From the IMG/VR virus record IMGVR_UViG_3300008266_000002: a stretch of DNA of 64,000 nt; one strand, 5' to 3'. Below, one piece after another: positions 3,136 to 30,942 of this stretch. The stretch is from a virus. How positions within the stretch are numbered: the stretch's first letter is position 1; every line of letters begins with the position of its first letter. The notes under the pieces are model-generated. The model was not told the DNA's origin, did not search any database, and worked only from the letters and a program-made list of their open reading frames with translations. A program made the position numbers and the translations under genes.

Positions 3136-3854
3136 TAGTTACATTCATCTCTGACACACATGGCAAACACAATCAAATCACACAAGACTTAAAAGGTGGT
3201 GACTTGCTTATTCACTCTGGTGACATCTCCTCTATGGGATATCATTATGAACTTACAGCATTCTATGAGTGGTTTGATAGTATACCAAACTACACCACAA
3301 AAGTATTCATTGCTGGGAACCATGATTGGGGATTCTTAGATGCTCACAGATACATCCTATATAAGGAAGCTAAAATGCCACAACGTACTCAAGAGCTAAT
3401 TGATTCCTATCCCAATATTCACTATCTACAAGATCAGGCTCTACAAGTTGCAATAGAAAATGAACTTACTATTAACCTATATGGAAGTCCATGGCAACCA
3501 GCGTTTAATAATTGGGCTTTTAATTCGCCAAGAAACGGAGACCAATTAAAAGAGATATGGGATAACATTCCAAATAATACTGATATCTTGATCACACACG
3601 GACCAGCTTATGGTTATTTAGATCAGGTGCTTGGACGATCCGAAAATCTAGGTTGTGAGTTGTTGGCTGAAAGAATTAAGACACTCAAACCAAAAATTCA
3701 CGTATGTGGTCATATTCATAGTGGTCACGGTTACACCTATGATAAAGATACTCACTTTATAAATGCTTCAGTACTAAACGAGTCTTACAACTATGCTAAC
3801 CGACCACTCACTATTAATTGGAACCCAGAAACCAATGATGTAGAATTTTTGTAA
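3132..3854 (+). CDS. calcineurin-like metallophosphoesterase
   Basis: DTH, GD, GNHD, ITHGP and GHIH motifs. Confidence 0.92.
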   Translation: MIVTFISDTHGKHNQITQDLKGGDLLIHSGDISSMGYHYELTAFYEWFDSIPNYTTKVFIAGNHDWGFLDAHRYILYKEAKMPQRTQELIDSYPNIHYLQDQALQVAIENELTINLYGSPWQPAFNNWAFNSPRNGDQLKEIWDNIPNNTDILITHGPAYGYLDQVLGRSENLGCELLAERIKTLKPKIHVCGHIHSGHGYTYDKDTHFINASVLNESYNYANRPLTINWNPETNDVEFL

Positions 3855-3926
3855 CTTTTTTTGTCTAACTGTTGTCTCACGTGTTTTTTTAGCGTATATT
3901 TAGTTATAATTAAAAACACACAAGCT

Positions 3927-4265
3927 ATGACAAATTATCCACCAACAGTCGAAGAGAAACTGGAGTTAGTTAATGATATATTGACTAACATCGACTACAA
4001 GTATCCAGTATACGAACATTGTGTTCGTGAAGTATTTGGTCCTATTTTCTTGCAACAATGGCTCGATGGTAAGGAGGTGGGATTTGAATTAGAAGAGTTC
4101 GAAAGATTACTAAAGTTGACAATCGCTAGAAGTCTTGTTGAAGAGATGAGAGAAGAAGGATTGATTGATACTATTGAAGATCCTGACAGAAATGATGATG
4201 TTGTATTCTTAACCGAGAAAGGAAAAAAGGTTGCTGAATTATTACATAACGTAAATTTAAACTAA
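3927..4265 (+). CDS. hypothetical protein, possible C-terminal winged helix
   Basis: ATG follows the promoter; ends in EEGLI...VFLTEKGKK. Confidence 0.6.
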   Translation: MTNYPPTVEEKLELVNDILTNIDYKYPVYEHCVREVFGPIFLQQWLDGKEVGFELEEFERLLKLTIARSLVEEMREEGLIDTIEDPDRNDDVVFLTEKGKKVAELLHNVNLN

Positions 4266-6516: not shown

Positions 6517-6601
6517 TTTTTTTTTAAAAAAAATGTGTTAACTGTTGTCTCACAGCTACAAAGTGTGTATATTTAGTCTGTAATCAAATCACACACAAGT
6601 T

Positions 6602-6922
6602 ATGAAACAAACAACAAAAAGCACTTCCGGAACACACTTCTTAGATGTAACAGTGTTCGCTTCTCACAATGAGATAACTGCTATCTGTGGTAAACCACAA
6701 TCCTCTTCTGATGACTTTAAGTGTCGTTACTGTTGGGACATGGAAACCGAAGATGGTGATGTCTTCACCGTCTATGACTGGAAAGACCTATTCATTAGAA
6801 AAAAGGATGAACCAATCACATGGCACATAGGTAGCTTTGATTACCTTGCTGCTGATACTGCTCGATATGAAATTAATCAAGCCTTAAAACAATTACGAAA
6901 TGAAAAAGAGATACCTTCTTAA
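6602..6922 (+). CDS. hypothetical phage protein
   Basis: Follows a promoter; FTVYDWK...WHIG motif. Confidence 0.7.
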   Translation: MKQTTKSTSGTHFLDVTVFASHNEITAICGKPQSSSDDFKCRYCWDMETEDGDVFTVYDWKDLFIRKKDEPITWHIGSFDYLAADTARYEINQALKQLRNEKEIPS

Positions 6923-8774: not shown

Positions 8775-8786
8775 AATCATACACAC

Positions 8787-9047
8787 ATGCAAAACACACA
8801 AGTTTCCAGACAACTATCTCAAGAAGAAACATTAGCTAAAAAAATGACAACGGATATCTTACAAGCGCTAAGAGCTTCTGATAACCCAATGGCTATTTTA
8901 ATTGAGAGCTACATTCAAAAACAACTCGAGACTTATCGAGATGAAATCTTCGAAGCTATTGAAGGTGATCCTTTTAGTATTGATAGCAGAACTTACGAAG
9001 AGTATGAGGCTGATACACGATTAGAAAAGGAGGATCATTATGAATAG
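8787..9047 (+). CDS. hypothetical protein
   Basis: ACACAC leader before the ATG. Confidence 0.6.
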   Translation: MQNTQVSRQLSQEETLAKKMTTDILQALRASDNPMAILIESYIQKQLETYRDEIFEAIEGDPFSIDSRTYEEYEADTRLEKEDHYE

Positions 9048-11091: not shown

Positions 11092-11164
11092 AAATATTTC
11101 CTCAAACAGTTGTCTAGGAAGAAAATTAGTACTATCTTTCATAATAATTCAAAAACACACACAC

Positions 11165-11398
11165 ATGCGAAACGCAATCTTCACCGTTACTTGTCCGAAA
11201 TCTAATGAGGTCGTTAAACAATACGAACTCGAATATGAAACCCTTCAAGGACTAGAAGCCGACTTCTTGGAAAGTCGTCAGGTTTGGTCTGAGTATATGG
11301 TGACTGTTGACGCTGATGAGTGTCATCTTTCTGCTCCTCTCACTTGGAGAGAAGAGGTATGCATTGGTCAGGTGGCGGAATTGGTAGACGCTAAGTAA
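11165..11398 (+). CDS. hypothetical early protein; 3' end overlaps a tRNA-like element
   Basis: ATG after the promoter at 11109 and an ACACACACAC leader. Confidence 0.55.
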   Translation: MRNAIFTVTCPKSNEVVKQYELEYETLQGLEADFLESRQVWSEYMVTVDADECHLSAPLTWREEVCIGQVAELVDAK

Positions 11399-16451: not shown

Positions 16452-16525
16452 AATAATTTTCCCAAACTGTTGCCTAGTGTTTAAAAAGGCGGATCTTTAG
16501 ATATAACAATTAAACAACATAAATT

Positions 16526-17116: not shown

Positions 17117-17186
17117 AGTCAGGTGGTGTAATTGGTAACATAGGTCTTAATTGGCTTGGATGCAGGTTCGAATCCTGTCCTGACTA
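17117..17186 (+). tRNA. atypical tRNA / pseudo-tRNA (anticodon undetermined)
   Basis: AGTCAGG/CCTGACT+A, D-arm GTGT/ACAT and T-arm GCAGG-TTCGAAT-CCTGT. The anticodon arm AGGTC-TTAATT-GGCTT is weak and has a 6-nt loop. Confidence 0.65.
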
Positions 17187-17227
17187 CAAAATTAACAATA
17201 TTCACACACACAATAAAATTTAAGTCT

Positions 17228-18388
17228 ATGTCAAACGTTATTATTGCTAAAGTACAAATGGGCGCTAATGCCAAAGGTGGTCAATCTGTTAGAGCTTATG
17301 AAGCTGTTACTGGAATGGACATCACAAAAGAGATAGTTTATGCCACTTTGAAGAACGCCTACGATGCTGGTAATTGGTTAGAAAACTCTGCTGGTAAGTG
17401 GAAGCAAGTAAGTATTGCTGATGCAGAGCGCTTCTTGAAAGACCTTGAGAATCCCGTCAAATCTTCCGTCTCACAAGAGAAAAATGAAATGGCGATGTTT
17501 CTATCCACTTGCTCTGAGAAACGCCCAGAGAGCTTATTCTGTGAAGATTTAACTTGGAAATTCTTATGCCGCTCAGTGATGAGAGGTAAGAACATATTGC
17601 TTACAGGTCCTACTGGTTGTGGTAAATCACAGACTGCCATTGCGGTAGCAAAGGCCTTAGATAAACCCTTCTTCTATGTTAACTTGGGTGCTACTCAGGA
17701 TCCAAGAGGTACTCTAATTGGTAATACTCACTTCAGTAAAGATGCTGGTACTTACTTCAACGAGTCTGCCTTTGTTAAGGCAATACAAACCCCTGACACT
17801 GTGATACTTCTAGACGAGGTGTCAAGAGCACATCCAGAGGCTTGGAACATTCTTATGACAGTACTTGATCCAGGTCAAAGATACTTGAGATTAGATGAGG
17901 CTGTTAACACTCCTACAGTAAAGGTAGCAGAAGGTGTAAGCTTCATTGGTACTGCAAACATCGGTAACGAGTATACTGCAGTAAGAGTAATGGACAGAGC
18001 GTTACTTGATAGGTTTGTAATCGCAGAGATTCCTTACTTGACTATCGCTCAAGAGACCCAGTTAATCAGTCAGTTATACCCTACCTTGGATGTCACTCTT
18101 GCTAAGAATCTTGCAGAGATTGCTACTCTTACTAGAGCTGAGGTGAAGTCTGACAGTGCTAGAATACAGACTCCAATCTCCACAAGATCGATAGTAGAGA
18201 TGGCTGGTTTGATTAACGATGGCTTCTCCCTTACAGAATGTGCCGAGGTTAGTATCTACCCACTATACTCTCAGGATGGTGGTCTACAATCAGAAAGGAC
18301 CTTTGTAAAGCAATTGGTACAGAAGTTTGTTCCAGATGGAACTAGTGATAGCTTGATGGGTGATGAGAGTGTTGAGAATCCTTTCTAA
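17228..18388 (+). CDS. MoxR/CbbQ/NorQ-type AAA+ ATPase
   Basis: Walker A GPTGCGKS, Walker B ILLDEVSR, TANIG, DRALLDRF, STR. ATG at 17228. Confidence 0.92.
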   Translation: MSNVIIAKVQMGANAKGGQSVRAYEAVTGMDITKEIVYATLKNAYDAGNWLENSAGKWKQVSIADAERFLKDLENPVKSSVSQEKNEMAMFLSTCSEKRPESLFCEDLTWKFLCRSVMRGKNILLTGPTGCGKSQTAIAVAKALDKPFFYVNLGATQDPRGTLIGNTHFSKDAGTYFNESAFVKAIQTPDTVILLDEVSRAHPEAWNILMTVLDPGQRYLRLDEAVNTPTVKVAEGVSFIGTANIGNEYTAVRVMDRALLDRFVIAEIPYLTIAQETQLISQLYPTLDVTLAKNLAEIATLTRAEVKSDSARIQTPISTRSIVEMAGLINDGFSLTECAEVSIYPLYSQDGGLQSERTFVKQLVQKFVPDGTSDSLMGDESVENPF

Positions 18389-18711: not shown

Positions 18712-18796
18712 TGAAAAATTTTTTTAAAAAAAATCGATAAACTGTTGTCTATTGTTTAGAAAGGGTGATCTTTAGGTATAATCAATTATCACACAC

Positions 18797-20965
18797 ATGA
18801 AAGCTAACAAATCAATCTTCACAAGAAAAACCGCCATCTCGGGGTTCAATACTAAGAAAAACTACTCTTCCTTTTGGATGGATGACGATAGTGATATCAC
18901 CAGTAGATACGGTGGTCTTAGTTCTGAGGTAAGAAGTAGTAGTGACCTATTCAAAGTTATCAAGCTTAACAACTATCGTAGAGCGATAACCAACTTCGTG
19001 AAGATCGTTACTAACATGGATATTCCAGTTACTTGGTTCAGTGGTGGTTCTTATACCGATAGCAAGAGTATCAACCTAACCTCTGACATTAAAGACAACA
19101 ACTTTGACGTGACTGTCGGTCTTGCACTTCACGAAGCTTCTCACATCAAACTTACTGATTTCGGGATACTTCAGGACTTGTATGCAAACGATATTGCAAT
19201 AGTAAATGACCTCGAATCTAAACACCAACGCATGTGTAAGGAGTTAGTTAAGGAGATGCTTAACTGGGTTGAGGACAGACGTATTGACCACTACATCTTC
19301 AGTACTTCTCCTGGATACAAAGCTTACTATCACAAGTTGTATGACTACTACTGGAATGATAAGAATGTTAACAAAGGTTTCAAGAGTACTCAGTTTAATG
19401 ATCCTACCAGTATCCAGAGCTATGAGTTCCACATCATTAACATGTTGAACCCATTATTCGATAGCAAAGCACTTCCAGGTCTAGAAGAGATTACAAAGCT
19501 TATTAACGTAAGAAACATTAGCAGACTAAAGAGTACTTCCGAAGCTCTAGAGGTTGCAGTAGGAGTAGTTGACATTATCTTAACTAACGTTGCCTCTGCC
19601 AAAGCCGAAGGTACAATGGCTCAGGAAGGTGAGAGTGAAGAGTCACAGGAATCACAAGAGCAGGGAGAAGGAGAAGGTCAAGGTGGTAGTGGTGAAGGAG
19701 CAGAGCAAAAGGAAGGTGCAGGTGAGGGTCAAGAGCAAGAGAACACTGAGCTAAGTGATAAGGAGATGAGAGAAGTACAAAAGGCTCTTGATAAAATGAG
19801 AGACTTCTTGAATGGCAAGACTGACAAGAAACGTACTACTAAAGGGCTACAAAAGCAACTAGACAGCACAGCTAACGAGAACATGCAGATACAAGCAGTA
19901 GGTGGTAGTGATGGAGTCAAGAGTATGTCAAGCATCATGATGGATGGTATAACTGGTTCATTATCACAGCTGTTAGCTAACAGTGAGGTATTGAAGGAGT
20001 TAAGAGATGAGAGATACAAACTTCCATACGGTGAGGGACTAAAGAGAGCAGAATTGAACAAGGAGATTGAAAGACTAAGCGAAGCTGTGGAAACCCATGC
20101 AATGAATAGATATTTCCAGGCAAGTACATGGACCAGTAAAGAAACTAAAGAGGCAGTACAGAAGGGACTTGAGATGGGAGCTTTACTTGGTAAGAAGCTA
20201 CAACTACACAACGAAAGTAGAGAGAAGGTAGACAACAGACTTAGAAGTGGCAAAATCGATAACAGACGTCTTGCACATGCAGGTTATGGTATCGAGAGTG
20301 TGTTCCAACAAATCACTATCGATAAGTACAAGAAAGCTAACCTACACATCTCTTTGGATGGTAGTGGTAGTATGAATGGAAGATGTTGGAACTCAGCAGC
20401 ACAAATGACAGCAGCAATCGGTAAGGCAATCAGCTACACCCAGAACATAGAACTACAGGTATCAATCAGAGCAACGGATACAGCAGGTAACGGTGACATA
20501 CCAGTAGTAATCAACATCTATGACTCTCGCAAGAACAACCTTAATCACTTAGTGAAAGCACTTACTAACTACCATTGTGGCTCTAACACTCCAGAAGGAT
20601 TATGCTTCGAAGCAATGCACAAGCAACACCAAATCCTCTCTGGGACTAGTGACATGGATTCCTACTTCTTAAACATTAGTGATGGAATGCCAGGTATGGG
20701 TAACTACGGAGGATACGAAGCAGTAAGACATACAGCTAAGTGGGTTAACAAAATCAAGGCAGACCTTAATGTAAAGGTGCTAAGCTTCTTCTTAGATGAT
20801 AGCTATGGTAGTGAAGATATGGCACAGATGATTAAGAGATTTAACGGCGCATATGGAGCTGGGAACTCATTCAGACAAATGTACGGAAAGGATGCAGCAG
20901 CAGTTAATCCAAGCTCAGTGCTAGACATCGCAAGAGAACTTAACAAGAAGTTCATGAGCAAATAA
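18797..20965 (+). CDS. metallopeptidase-like (HEXXH) plus vWA domain protein, CobT-like partner of the AAA+ ATPase
   Basis: LHEASH and NWVEDRRI; acidic/Gly linker; MIDAS DGSGSM, TPEG, ISDGMP. Confidence 0.88.
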   Translation: MKANKSIFTRKTAISGFNTKKNYSSFWMDDDSDITSRYGGLSSEVRSSSDLFKVIKLNNYRRAITNFVKIVTNMDIPVTWFSGGSYTDSKSINLTSDIKDNNFDVTVGLALHEASHIKLTDFGILQDLYANDIAIVNDLESKHQRMCKELVKEMLNWVEDRRIDHYIFSTSPGYKAYYHKLYDYYWNDKNVNKGFKSTQFNDPTSIQSYEFHIINMLNPLFDSKALPGLEEITKLINVRNISRLKSTSEALEVAVGVVDIILTNVASAKAEGTMAQEGESEESQESQEQGEGEGQGGSGEGAEQKEGAGEGQEQENTELSDKEMREVQKALDKMRDFLNGKTDKKRTTKGLQKQLDSTANENMQIQAVGGSDGVKSMSSIMMDGITGSLSQLLANSEVLKELRDERYKLPYGEGLKRAELNKEIERLSEAVETHAMNRYFQASTWTSKETKEAVQKGLEMGALLGKKLQLHNESREKVDNRLRSGKIDNRRLAHAGYGIESVFQQITIDKYKKANLHISLDGSGSMNGRCWNSAAQMTAAIGKAISYTQNIELQVSIRATDTAGNGDIPVVINIYDSRKNNLNHLVKALTNYHCGSNTPEGLCFEAMHKQHQILSGTSDMDSYFLNISDGMPGMGNYGGYEAVRHTAKWVNKIKADLNVKVLSFFLDDSYGSEDMAQMIKRFNGAYGAGNSFRQMYGKDAAAVNPSSVLDIARELNKKFMSK

Positions 20966-20969
20966 TAAC

Positions 20970-21360
20970 CAATCATATAGGGGGCCTACCTAAAGTGTGT
21001 GTGATAGGGGTAGGCATACATTAGGGGTGCCATAGGGTACCCCTCCCCATATAGTAACCCGTATATACGCAGGGGATCCCTCCCATGTTTTTAGCGTTAA
21101 AACCGGTGTTTTTAGGGGGGGTATAGGGTGCGATAATTACGTGAAAACCGAGAAGGGAAGGTCGATATGCCGCCAGCTAAACGCGTATATATTGCGCGCA
21201 TAATTTTTTTTCCTATAGGCGATCGACACTTGGGGTACACTGCGTGTAAGTGTATATCCTCCCCCCTATGATGCCTATTACCCCCTACTATCCCCCCACT
21301 ACACCTACTACCCCCCCTATTACCCCCTTTCTACTTGACAACTGACAACGCAACAAGGGA
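20970..21360. other. GC-rich non-coding block with G-tracts followed by C-tracts
   Basis: No ORF. G-runs lie at 20979-21129; five C5-7 runs lie at 21261-21327. Confidence 0.6.
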
Positions 21361-21390
21361 CTATTTATAAGGGCAATACACACAGTAAAA

Positions 21391-25194: not shown

Positions 25195-25446
25195 ATGACT
25201 AAGTTTTTTGCATTTATCACTACTACTTTATTACTTATTTCATGTGGTAAATCTTCCCAACTTGAAGAGTACACTCGTGACGTAAAAAAAGGCGTAATTG
25301 TTGAGATTTTTCGTAAAAATCCTTGTGGAATTCATGAGGAAATTAGTCCAAAATTTTATGCAATTACACATGAAAGTGATACGGTAACTTGCACTCGTTA
25401 TAGTAAAATTGGAGATTCGGTATACTTTATAAAATATAGCAAATAA
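25195..25446 (+). CDS. lipoprotein
   Basis: MTKFFAFITTTLLLIS-C lipobox. Confidence 0.6.
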   Translation: MTKFFAFITTTLLLISCGKSSQLEEYTRDVKKGVIVEIFRKNPCGIHEEISPKFYAITHESDTVTCTRYSKIGDSVYFIKYSK

Positions 25447-29897: not shown

Positions 29898-30031
29898 AAA
29901 TTATAAGTTTTAGTGAATTATATATCATAAATATAGACCTTTTTCATTGAAATACAAATTATATTCTGTTAAAATAAATTTTATAATAGCTGTTGTTTTT
30001 TGTTTTAAGTTGGTGTATATTTATATTATAA

Positions 30032-30404
30032 GGGGATGAATGGAATCGACAGATAGATGCGCTCTTTGAAATGATGCAAGTAAGGTTAGATGGAAACCTT
30101 TGACGACCTATCGCAAAAATATTCGGCAACGAACTTTCTGATTGGACCTGGGAAGATGCTATGGCATTCGTAGGTGCAGATTTAGCAATTGCAGCTTAGT
30201 CTCTCTCGTATCACTCACGAGACCTATTAAATGAAGTGAACCAACCGCTTTTGTAATTTGAGCTTGTCAAATAGCCTACAGTTTGCAAGTAGGAGTAGCA
30301 ATACAAACTTGATATTTTGTTCGTTAAGAAAAACGTACTAAACTTGTGAATGAATTTTACTTGATCGACTAGACTGGACGTGGGTTCGAATCCCACCATC
30401 TCCA
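30032..30404 (+). ncRNA. ssrA: tmRNA
   Basis: GGGGATG/CATCTCC-A acceptor with G3.U70; GGAATCGAC; T-arm GTGGG-TTCGAAT-CCCAC; tag ORF 30125-30199 GNELSDWTWEDAMAFVGADLAIAA*. Confidence 0.92.
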
Positions 30405-30486
30405 CAAAAAAAGCAAACGTGTTGCCTACACAAAAAAAAGGTAGTATATTTATTATTATTAGTTAATTAACAAAACAATTTTTAAA

Positions 30487-30645
30487 ATGAAAAGATTTAT
30501 GTTCGCTGCATTGGTAGTAGCTCTTTTAGCAAGCTGTAGTTCTAAAGCTACCGAAGAAACAACAACTACAACAACTGATTCAACCTCTGTTGATTCTGCT
30601 ACAGTGGTTACTGATTCAACAGCTACTACTACAATCAGCAAGTAA
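30487..30645 (+). CDS. small Thr/Ser-rich lipoprotein (52 aa)
   Basis: MKRFMFAALVVALLAS-CSSKATEETTTTTTDSTSVDSATVVTDSTATTTISK*; promoter at 30421. Not in the ORF track. Confidence 0.75.
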   Translation: MKRFMFAALVVALLASCSSKATEETTTTTTDSTSVDSATVVTDSTATTTISK

Positions 30646-30698
30646 CTTTTATGTTACTTTTTCTACGAAATATGGCGTAAAAGTAACTTTTATGTTAC
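30640..30698. repeat. 18-bp direct repeat of a palindromic unit
   Basis: AAGTAACTTTTATGTTAC at 30640 and 30681. Confidence 0.7.
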
Positions 30699-30727
30699 AT
30701 TTTGTAGCTTGTGTGTGTGTTAAATTT

Positions 30728-30754
30728 GGCCGGTCTTTATGATCGGCCTTTTTT
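30728..30754 (+). terminator. intrinsic terminator
   Basis: GGCCGGTC-tttat-GATCGGCC followed by a T-run. Confidence 0.8.
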
Positions 30755-30798
30755 GTTATATGATATTTATATACAGTAACAATTAAATATCATACGTC

Positions 30799-30942
30799 AT
30801 GTCAGCAAAAACAAAAGTTCAAACTACAGTTAAATTCAAACTCAAATCTAAAAAAAGACGACCAGGAATACACGCTAAAACCAAACAGAGTACTAACAAA
30901 TCAAATAAAAATTATGTCAAAGTTAGCGTAGGTCAGGGTTAA
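30799..30942 (+). CDS. small basic protein (47 aa)
   Basis: MSAKTKVQ...KRRPGIHAKTK...VGQG* after TATTTAT at 30764. Not in the ORF track. Confidence 0.65.
   Translation: MSAKTKVQTTVKFKLKSKKRRPGIHAKTKQSTNKSNKNYVKVSVGQG

Follow-up and report, generated by a model that had tools for sequence, protein, structure and literature searches.

In E. coli and Salmonella, DapZ and CpxQ are sRNAs derived from mRNA 3′ UTRs and 3′ETS-leuZ is an sRNA derived from a tRNA trailer; DapZ carries a GcvB-like G/U seed. The RegA repressor and the RegB endoribonuclease of phage T4 are proteins, and RegB cuts GGAG Shine-Dalgarno sites. The c4 of phages P1 and P7 is an antisense RNA that targets one operon and has its own Rfam family. 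To our knowledge, Hfq is absent from Bacteroidota, and we know of almost nothing on post-transcriptional control in the phages of this phylum. The enterobacterial sRNA GcvB, through its G/U-rich R1 seed, silences C/A-rich enhancers with ACA/CA motifs (PMC3879156), and the Bacteroides sRNAs GibS and FopS combine a single-stranded seed with a terminator and base-pair at the translation start regions of their targets (PMC11697453). In Bacteroidia, start regions depend on an unstructured, A-rich state, and Shine-Dalgarno pairing is unused there (PMC6847099).

The DNA analyzed here is a viral stretch of 64,000 nucleotides (IMG/VR record IMGVR_UViG_3300008266_000002), hereafter the window, which is part of a large tailed phage and encodes tape-measure and baseplate proteins. 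Its ORFs lie almost all on the + strand and its promoters are of the Bacteroidota style with a TAnnTTT(A/G) box, in keeping with a T4-like phage of Bacteroidota; a search of the GenBank phage collection gave no match to a named phage. The initial annotation had singled out a GU-rich element in front of a terminator as a candidate phage sRNA that is antisense to the CA-repeat leaders of early genes, and had compared it to GcvB. We describe this element as part of a module composed of a hairpin (P1), an unpaired UG tract and an intrinsic terminator.

By analogy, the nearest mechanism would be that of GcvB, and the nearest biogenesis that of the sRNAs derived from 3′ UTRs and tRNA trailers. The likeness to GcvB consists of an unpaired G/U-rich stretch set against CA-rich enhancers upstream of the start codons of many mRNAs, with translational repression of a regulon as the expected outcome. 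This comparison stands as an analogy of mechanism but not as family membership: the module has no match to GcvB (RF00022), whether at the gathering threshold or with E-values up to 10 allowed, and no homology to it in sequence or structure, it is phage-encoded, tiny and located at the 3′ end of another gene's transcript, and its candidate targets are the phage's own genes, in a host phylum without Shine-Dalgarno pairing. With DapZ, CpxQ and 3′ETS-leuZ it shares the arrangement in which the regulatory stretch, here a putative one, uses the terminator of the parent and changes less than the remainder of the 3′ region, and in relatives it is, like 3′ETS-leuZ, a literal tRNA 3′ trailer; it differs in standing behind two unrelated parent genes, in a Bacteroidota phage, and in that its processing is our proposal. 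What it would have in common with RegA, RegB and c4 is that a product of the phage is directed at ribosome-binding regions in a class of its own early mRNAs, whereas the GGAG Shine-Dalgarno sites of RegB are unused in the host system of the module, and c4, with its single target operon, has a model in Rfam (C4) that the module does not match. GibS and FopS come from the same host phylum, pair with translation initiation regions and need no Hfq (PMC11697453, PMC7366714), but their seed lies at a primary 5′ end made from their own promoter, whereas the seed of the module follows a hairpin and no promoter of its own is evident; there is no homology either. No Rfam family matches the module at its gathering score, and among the Bacteroides sRNA families in Rfam only BTnc201 was returned (14.7 bits vs. 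a gathering score of 105). Matches to RprA, MicF, SorX, MicA and RyhB at loose thresholds are far below their cutoffs and reflect the generic hairpin-plus-terminator shape, not kinship.

About 16 promoters of the window, on the + strand only and between 1224 and 31744 (1.2-31.7 kb), form a family with the consensus TGTTG(T/C)(C/T)T, N17-19, (T/G)A(T/C)(C/A)TTTA, often followed by gTATAAT (in short, TGTTGYYT-N17-19-TAnnTTTA). Sites at 3870, 6543, 10316, 16468, 18743 and 24222 are examples, the family is kept in the relatives G001 and G006, and a short G-poor leader lies downstream of these promoters. The TGTTGYYT upstream box bears a loose resemblance to the T4 MotA box (TGCTT). Two promoters of the family precede the module (Table 1), and transcription of the unit that the module's terminator closes probably begins at the one at 29991. 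Since the promoters at 29991 and 30420 are upstream and no terminator-like hairpin was found between the tmRNA gene and 30728, the flagged element stands at the 3′ end of a unit whose promoters belong to the class that also drives the CA-leader genes. The tmRNA gene, which was missed by ARAGORN, occupies the same relative place in L002, L005 and L023 and lies 1 kb above tRNA-Met in these and in L166, and the tmRNAs of relatives encode the tag ANVDYSTEY(Y/F)AVAA.

In the window phage the module is the 3′ UTR of a 52-aa lipoprotein ORF, which has a weak LPAM_1 match. Comparable small lipoprotein ORFs are found at the same place in L010, L011, L012, L014, L018 and L019. Such small lipoproteins, present in many relatives, have quickly changing sequences; the window copy has a Thr/Ser/Asp-rich tail and an early-type promoter, and the protein is a candidate for superinfection exclusion or surface modification. 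The two GTAACTTTTATGTTAC repeats in this 3′ UTR are specific to the window phage and are missing from its relatives; their hairpins compete with P1 for pairing and could modulate the exposure of the UG element. On the downstream side, the TATTTATA box, which stands 8-35 nt before many gene starts in the window, and the 47-aa gene behind it directly follow the module in all relatives. Nearly all relatives share the very basic 47-aa protein (50-67% identity), possibly a virion or late protein that binds DNA or RNA.

Table 1. Features of the window that bear on the UG module and its candidate targets (energies are predicted for the duplex with the module).
Feature	Position	Strand	Details
Candidate target (best), leader and start codon of gene 3927	3911..3930	+	−19.3 kcal/mol
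Candidate target, leader of gene 6602, CACACACAAGUUAUG	6588..6605	+	−19.1 kcal/mol
Candidate target (weaker), leader of gene 8787, AUACACAC AUG	8779..8789	+	−18.1 kcal/mol
Candidate target, (CA)5 leader of 77-aa ORF starting at 11165	11153..11167	+	Exact 12-nt complement
Candidate target, leader of 722-aa gene (start 18797)	18787..18799	+	−19.5 kcal/mol
Second UG repeat hairpin, 16-nt loop showing GUGUGUGUG	20984..21015	+	After the 722-aa gene
Promoter of the TGTTGYYT-N17-19-TAnnTTTA class, before the tmRNA gene	29991..30031	+	Motif family
tmRNA gene, full length	30032..30407	+	Rfam RF00023, 71.6 bits vs. gathering score 47, model positions 1-374/374
Second promoter of the same class, before the small lipoprotein ORF	30420..30452	+	TGTTGCCT-N17-TATATTTA
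52-aa lipoprotein ORF	30487..30645	+	Translation: signal peptide, LLASC lipobox, Thr/Ser-rich tail
16-nt palindrome GTAACTTTTATGTTAC, present twice in identical form	30642-30657 and 30683-30698, 41 nt apart	+	Extra hairpins in the 3′ UTR
Hairpin P1	30694..30708	+	GUUACA/UGUAGC in the window, GCUAUG/CAUAGC in relatives
Flagged UG element TAGCTTGTGTGTGTGTT	30705..30721	+	Direct reading; just ahead of the intrinsic terminator
Intrinsic terminator ending the unit	30728..30754	+	8-bp stem with 6 G-C pairs, then TTTTTT
Downstream boundary: late-type TATTTATA promoter box and gene of a 47-aa very basic protein (30799-30942)	30764..30942	+	Context, outside the module

The sequence features on which the initial annotation was built are reproduced: direct reading and pattern search place TAGCTTGTGTGTGTGTT at 30705-30721, just before the terminator at 30728-30754, the reverse complement of TAGCTTGTGTGT (30705-30716) occurs without a mismatch at 3916-3927, a stretch leading into the ATG at 3927, and 30710-30721 is the exact complement of AACACACACACA at 11154-11165. 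The terminator is of the intrinsic kind: a G+C-rich stem-loop with a U run behind it closes the unit. TAGCTTGTGTGT is also complementary to 6591-6602 with one mismatch, and sites complementary to it with at most one mismatch number three where 0.49 are expected, which was reached by 2 of 100 shuffles; ACACACAC occurs 7 times vs. 2.3 expected. The first four bases of the element (UAGC) belong to the predicted 3′ arm of P1, and the open stretch is 30709-30721 (UUGUGUGUGUGUU), the predicted unpaired seed.

A single fold is found for all variants of the module: the 6-bp hairpin P1, then 10-13 unpaired nucleotides (UUGUGUGUGU and following), then a terminator stem of 7-12 bp. The variants are more stable than expected by z = −3.7 to −6.8, and the 3′ UTR of the window reaches z = −7.3. 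In P1, two of the six pairs are changed on both sides between the window and its relatives and 98% of the cells of our alignment of the variants (A2) are paired, and the terminator stem covaries as well, with two pairs changed on both sides and 100% of cells paired. Over the whole of A2, 99% of cells are paired with four compensatory pairs (two per helix), a result reached by 1 of 500 shuffles, and when the structure was slid along the alignment as a control the paired cells fell to 24%-54%. The UG tract is unpaired in the minimum free energy fold of every variant, with a predicted probability of being unpaired of 0.93-0.98 in the short forms and 0.29-0.77 in the folded full precursors; this difference fits, rather than proves, a processed fragment as the active form. 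A run of ACA/ACU threonine codons in the lipoprotein ORF (30540-30580) can pair in cis with the UG tract of the full-length mRNA, an interaction that takes its predicted accessibility down from 0.98 to 0.43.

Relatives were gathered through the neighboring 252-aa protein (24 loci) and by word scans, and eight sequences with seven variants carry the element (the window, L002/L008, L005, L023, L166, L010, and L014). Exact-word scans of IMG/VR and of metagenomes returned chiefly chance matches, from which a context filter left one new variant, L166. As to conservation in relatives, a check proposed with the initial annotation, the 14 nt at 30705-30718 (TAGCTTGTGTGTGT) are invariant in all eight sequences and form the longest invariant block of A2, in which the mean column identity is 63%. 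The flanking proteins of the carriers are only 30%-80% identical to those of the window and fall into three lineages in the tree of the neighbor protein, and the spacer, the loops, the terminator stem and the upstream gene all diverge, with the UG tract varying from 9 to 12 nt. The module has the position of a 3′-end-derived sRNA, on the same strand as the parent gene and between its end and the shared terminator, with an unpaired seed that is better conserved than the surrounding 3′ region. Its description as a 3′-UTR element applies to the window and two relatives (L010 and L014), where the upstream gene is the lipoprotein ORF; in L002, L005, L023 and L166 the module lies 16-20 nt past a tRNA-Met and is a tRNA 3′ trailer instead. 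Because the same module trails either a lipoprotein ORF or tRNA-Met, we regard it as a portable unit at transcript 3′ ends and not as a feature of one mRNA. It is also dispensable, since L011, L012/13, L018 and L019 keep the lipoprotein ORF and the terminator and do without P1 and the UG tract. A covariance-model search recovered zero further copies of the module; its sole match was the mirror-image leader at 6602, on the minus strand.

The other partner of the proposed interaction is a CA run in front of start codons. Of the leaders named in the initial annotation, those at 3927, 6602, 8787, 18797 and 24571 (and also 11165) do carry the run directly before the ATG, whereas 17228 and 25195 are weaker cases: at 17228 the run ends 16 nt before the ATG, just past a tRNA, and at 25195 a late-type TATTTATA box stands between the run and the gene, and the run is probably outside that gene's own leader. 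The tRNA-like gene at 17117-17187 (46 bits in Rfam) has an odd two-base anticodon loop in ARAGORN, a promoter of the family before it and (CA)5 directly after it. When the first ATGs of ORFs with 40 aa or more are taken as gene starts, 7 of 36 CA runs of at least 6 nt fall within 12 nt before one, where 0.94 would be expected from random placement, with no more than 6 in any of 2000 trials (about sevenfold); TG, GA, TC, CT and AG runs gave 0 in the same test. The runs belong to the translation start and not to the promoter, since they stand at a set distance of 0-4 nt from the ATG and at a varying distance from the promoter box (13 nt in the window, about 23 nt in G006). Of the genes with this type of promoter, only roughly one in three carries a run; the leaders at 16468 and 24222, for instance, are without one.

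Leaders with CA runs are also present in relatives, six in G006 and three in the module carrier G001, and ACACACACAAU precedes the AUG of the G006 ortholog of the 722-aa gene (53% aa identity). No CA leaders accompany the few promoters of G005, a relative lacking the module, but these are too few to count. A pattern search of IMG/VR found no homologs of gene 3927, and its orthologs came from the protein database. The leader of this gene is nearly invariant in five orthologs (L182-L186), and its promoter and leader together (3852-3926) are ~90% identical in sequences whose proteins are only 64%-88% identical; by this comparison of sequences, constraint is stronger on the control region than on the gene. 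The single change in the target, C to U at −2, keeps the pairing with the invariant seed as G-U. The 6602 leader is identical in two orthologs. For both genes the conservation spans the entire promoter-leader block, beyond the CA run.

A search for pairing, the kind of check that had been suggested, was run with the seed region against the whole + strand of the window (64 kb), and four of the six best sites are start regions (6602, 11165, 18797, and 3927); the other two are inside genes, and UG repeats are promiscuous through G-U pairs. At −18 kcal/mol or below, 5 of 112 start regions are found vs. 0.41 expected (p = 6e-5), and at −16 kcal/mol 6 vs. 1.2 expected, an enrichment that is not independent of the association of CA runs with start codons. 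As a control we used 6000 random target windows; dinucleotide shuffles leave a UG repeat almost unchanged. The predicted duplex with the 3927 leader has 12 exact pairs, or 15 with G-U, covers −11 to +4, and needs P1 to open. No covariation between seed and target is possible, since the seed never varies, and the independent support for an RNA directed against leaders is the conservation and display of the UG tract. The module-bearing records from the word and neighbor scans end short of where the best candidate targets lie. Read as its reverse complement, the module of relatives gives CACACACAAGCTATGA, identical to the 3927 leader, its start codon and the next base, which suggests that the module originated by inverted duplication of a leader.

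From sequence, conservation, fold, covariation and enriched complementarity we infer a course of transcription, processing, pairing in the cell, repression and timing as follows. We assign a probability of roughly 0.5 to the reading that the module is a 3′-end-derived sRNA that masks translation start regions in a host without Shine-Dalgarno pairing. P1, about 12 unpaired nucleotides of UG repeat and the terminator would be the functional 3′ end of transcripts made from TGTTGYYT...TAnnTTTA promoters, the parents being the tmRNA and lipoprotein mRNA in the window and tRNA-Met in relatives, and the active form could be the full transcript or, more likely, a stable processed fragment of ~50-110 nt. 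The UG tract would pair with CA tags at about −12 to −1 of 3927, 6602, 11165 and 18797, and more weakly of 8787 and 24571; at 3927 and 6602 the pairing would extend through AAGCUAUG by opening P1 and so reach the start codon. In Bacteroidia, ribosomes make no use of Shine-Dalgarno sequences and require a start region that is open and A-rich, and such a UG-CA duplex should therefore block the 30S subunit and lower translation. The sRNA proposed at the outset is backed in silico by a conserved GU tract exposed at the 3′ end of a unit, by conserved CA leaders and by enriched predicted pairing, but not in its timing: a late switch-off of early genes does not follow, as the module and its proposed targets are driven by the same promoter class. 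Such co-expression is an odd design for a shut-off switch and counts against the reading. Given the shared promoter class and the protection offered by the terminator hairpin, the RNA would accumulate and produce a delayed negative feedback, that is, a pulse of protein.

The strict invariance of the primary sequence suits a protein site as well as a seed, and the strongest competitor, which we consider rather doubtful, takes the UG tract to be a site for an RNA-binding protein of the RRM or cold-shock type, from host or phage, that stabilizes, processes or localizes the 3′ end or is itself titrated, in which case the CA runs would themselves be translation enhancers and the complementarity would merely follow from both sequences being simple repeats. 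CA/ACA motifs do enhance translation without any sRNA (PMC3879156), an RRM protein, RbpB, binds Bacteroides sRNAs (PMC11697453), and A/C-rich, G-poor leaders are general in the window phage, late genes included. Against this reading, the match at 3927 and 6602 runs past the repeat into AAGCUAUG, a second UG repeat is likewise displayed unpaired, and we know of no candidate protein.

The architecture and conservation that favor a seed against the phage's leaders are the same for a base-pairing sRNA aimed mainly at host mRNAs, or for a sponge or decoy of host RNA, and the tRNA 3′ trailer position in relatives recalls the 3′ETS-leuZ sponge of E. coli. Published phage sRNAs often act on host genes (bioRxiv 10.1101/2024.10.31.621285). 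We nevertheless judge this unlikely in view of the enrichment of strong sites in the phage's own start regions.

A role at the DNA level, in which an inverted copy of a leader plus ATG serves as an operator or recombination site, or in which P1 is a DNA signal of a promoter that makes an RNA of ~45 nt from the UG tract, is quite improbable. It could draw on the identity of CACACACAAGCTATGA with the 3927 leader and start, and on the 5′ arm and loop of P1, which read TAnnTTTT, like a −7 box, with TATGTTTT and TACATTTT resembling TAnnTTTA, but the compensatory changes keep P1 paired, the covariance model found zero further copies, and a −33 TGTTGC element is missing at the right distance, with the box spacing broken in L014 and L023; a promoter inside P1 was judged unlikely. 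A minus-strand gene starting from the mirrored ATG was rejected: in L010 and L014 its frame meets a stop after 3 codons, and the window lacks the ATG. A micro-ORF from the AUG in the 5′ arm of P1 was also rejected, because relatives with different repeat lengths put it in different frames and the window is without this AUG. That the region is an ordinary terminator with a functionless, slippage-prone TG microsatellite, as the variable tract length and the relatives that do without the tract might suggest, is hardly credible with a 14-nt block invariant while the spacer, terminator stem and upstream gene diverge over three lineages, with P1 kept by compensatory change, and with (TG)4 or longer occurring only three times on the + strand of the 64 kb, two of them in conserved unpaired RNA settings.

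In the second UG repeat, ACCTAAAGTGTGTGTG and the hairpin at 20990 are kept in G001 with a changed stem sequence, inside a conserved non-coding region of 400 nt that is 75% identical in G001, the only relative that a scan for this element found. The UG loop at 20990 may be a sister regulator. The non-coding region at 20966-21390 is rich in G runs and C runs, matches the start of G001 and has no Rfam match; candidates for its role are a structured RNA and a signal for replication or packaging.

Returning to an RNA that masks start regions, we tentatively suggest, as something possible but short of an even chance, that T4-like Bacteroidota phages place a private CA tag before the AUG and carry a portable hairpin-(UG)5-terminator RNA, on the ends of tRNA, tmRNA or mRNA transcripts, that masks the tag; by analogy, and with the same reserve for both together, such a mini-RNA would be an RNA-only counterpart of T4 RegA/RegB for a host without Shine-Dalgarno pairing. 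If this is true, a simple CA tag would mark a class of genes and one RNA stretch of 12 nt would control the whole class, and regulators could ride on the 3′ ends of tRNA or mRNA transcripts and arise through inversion of a target leader. The tag and its anti-tag would then also make a compact pair of parts for tuning translation in Bacteroidota.
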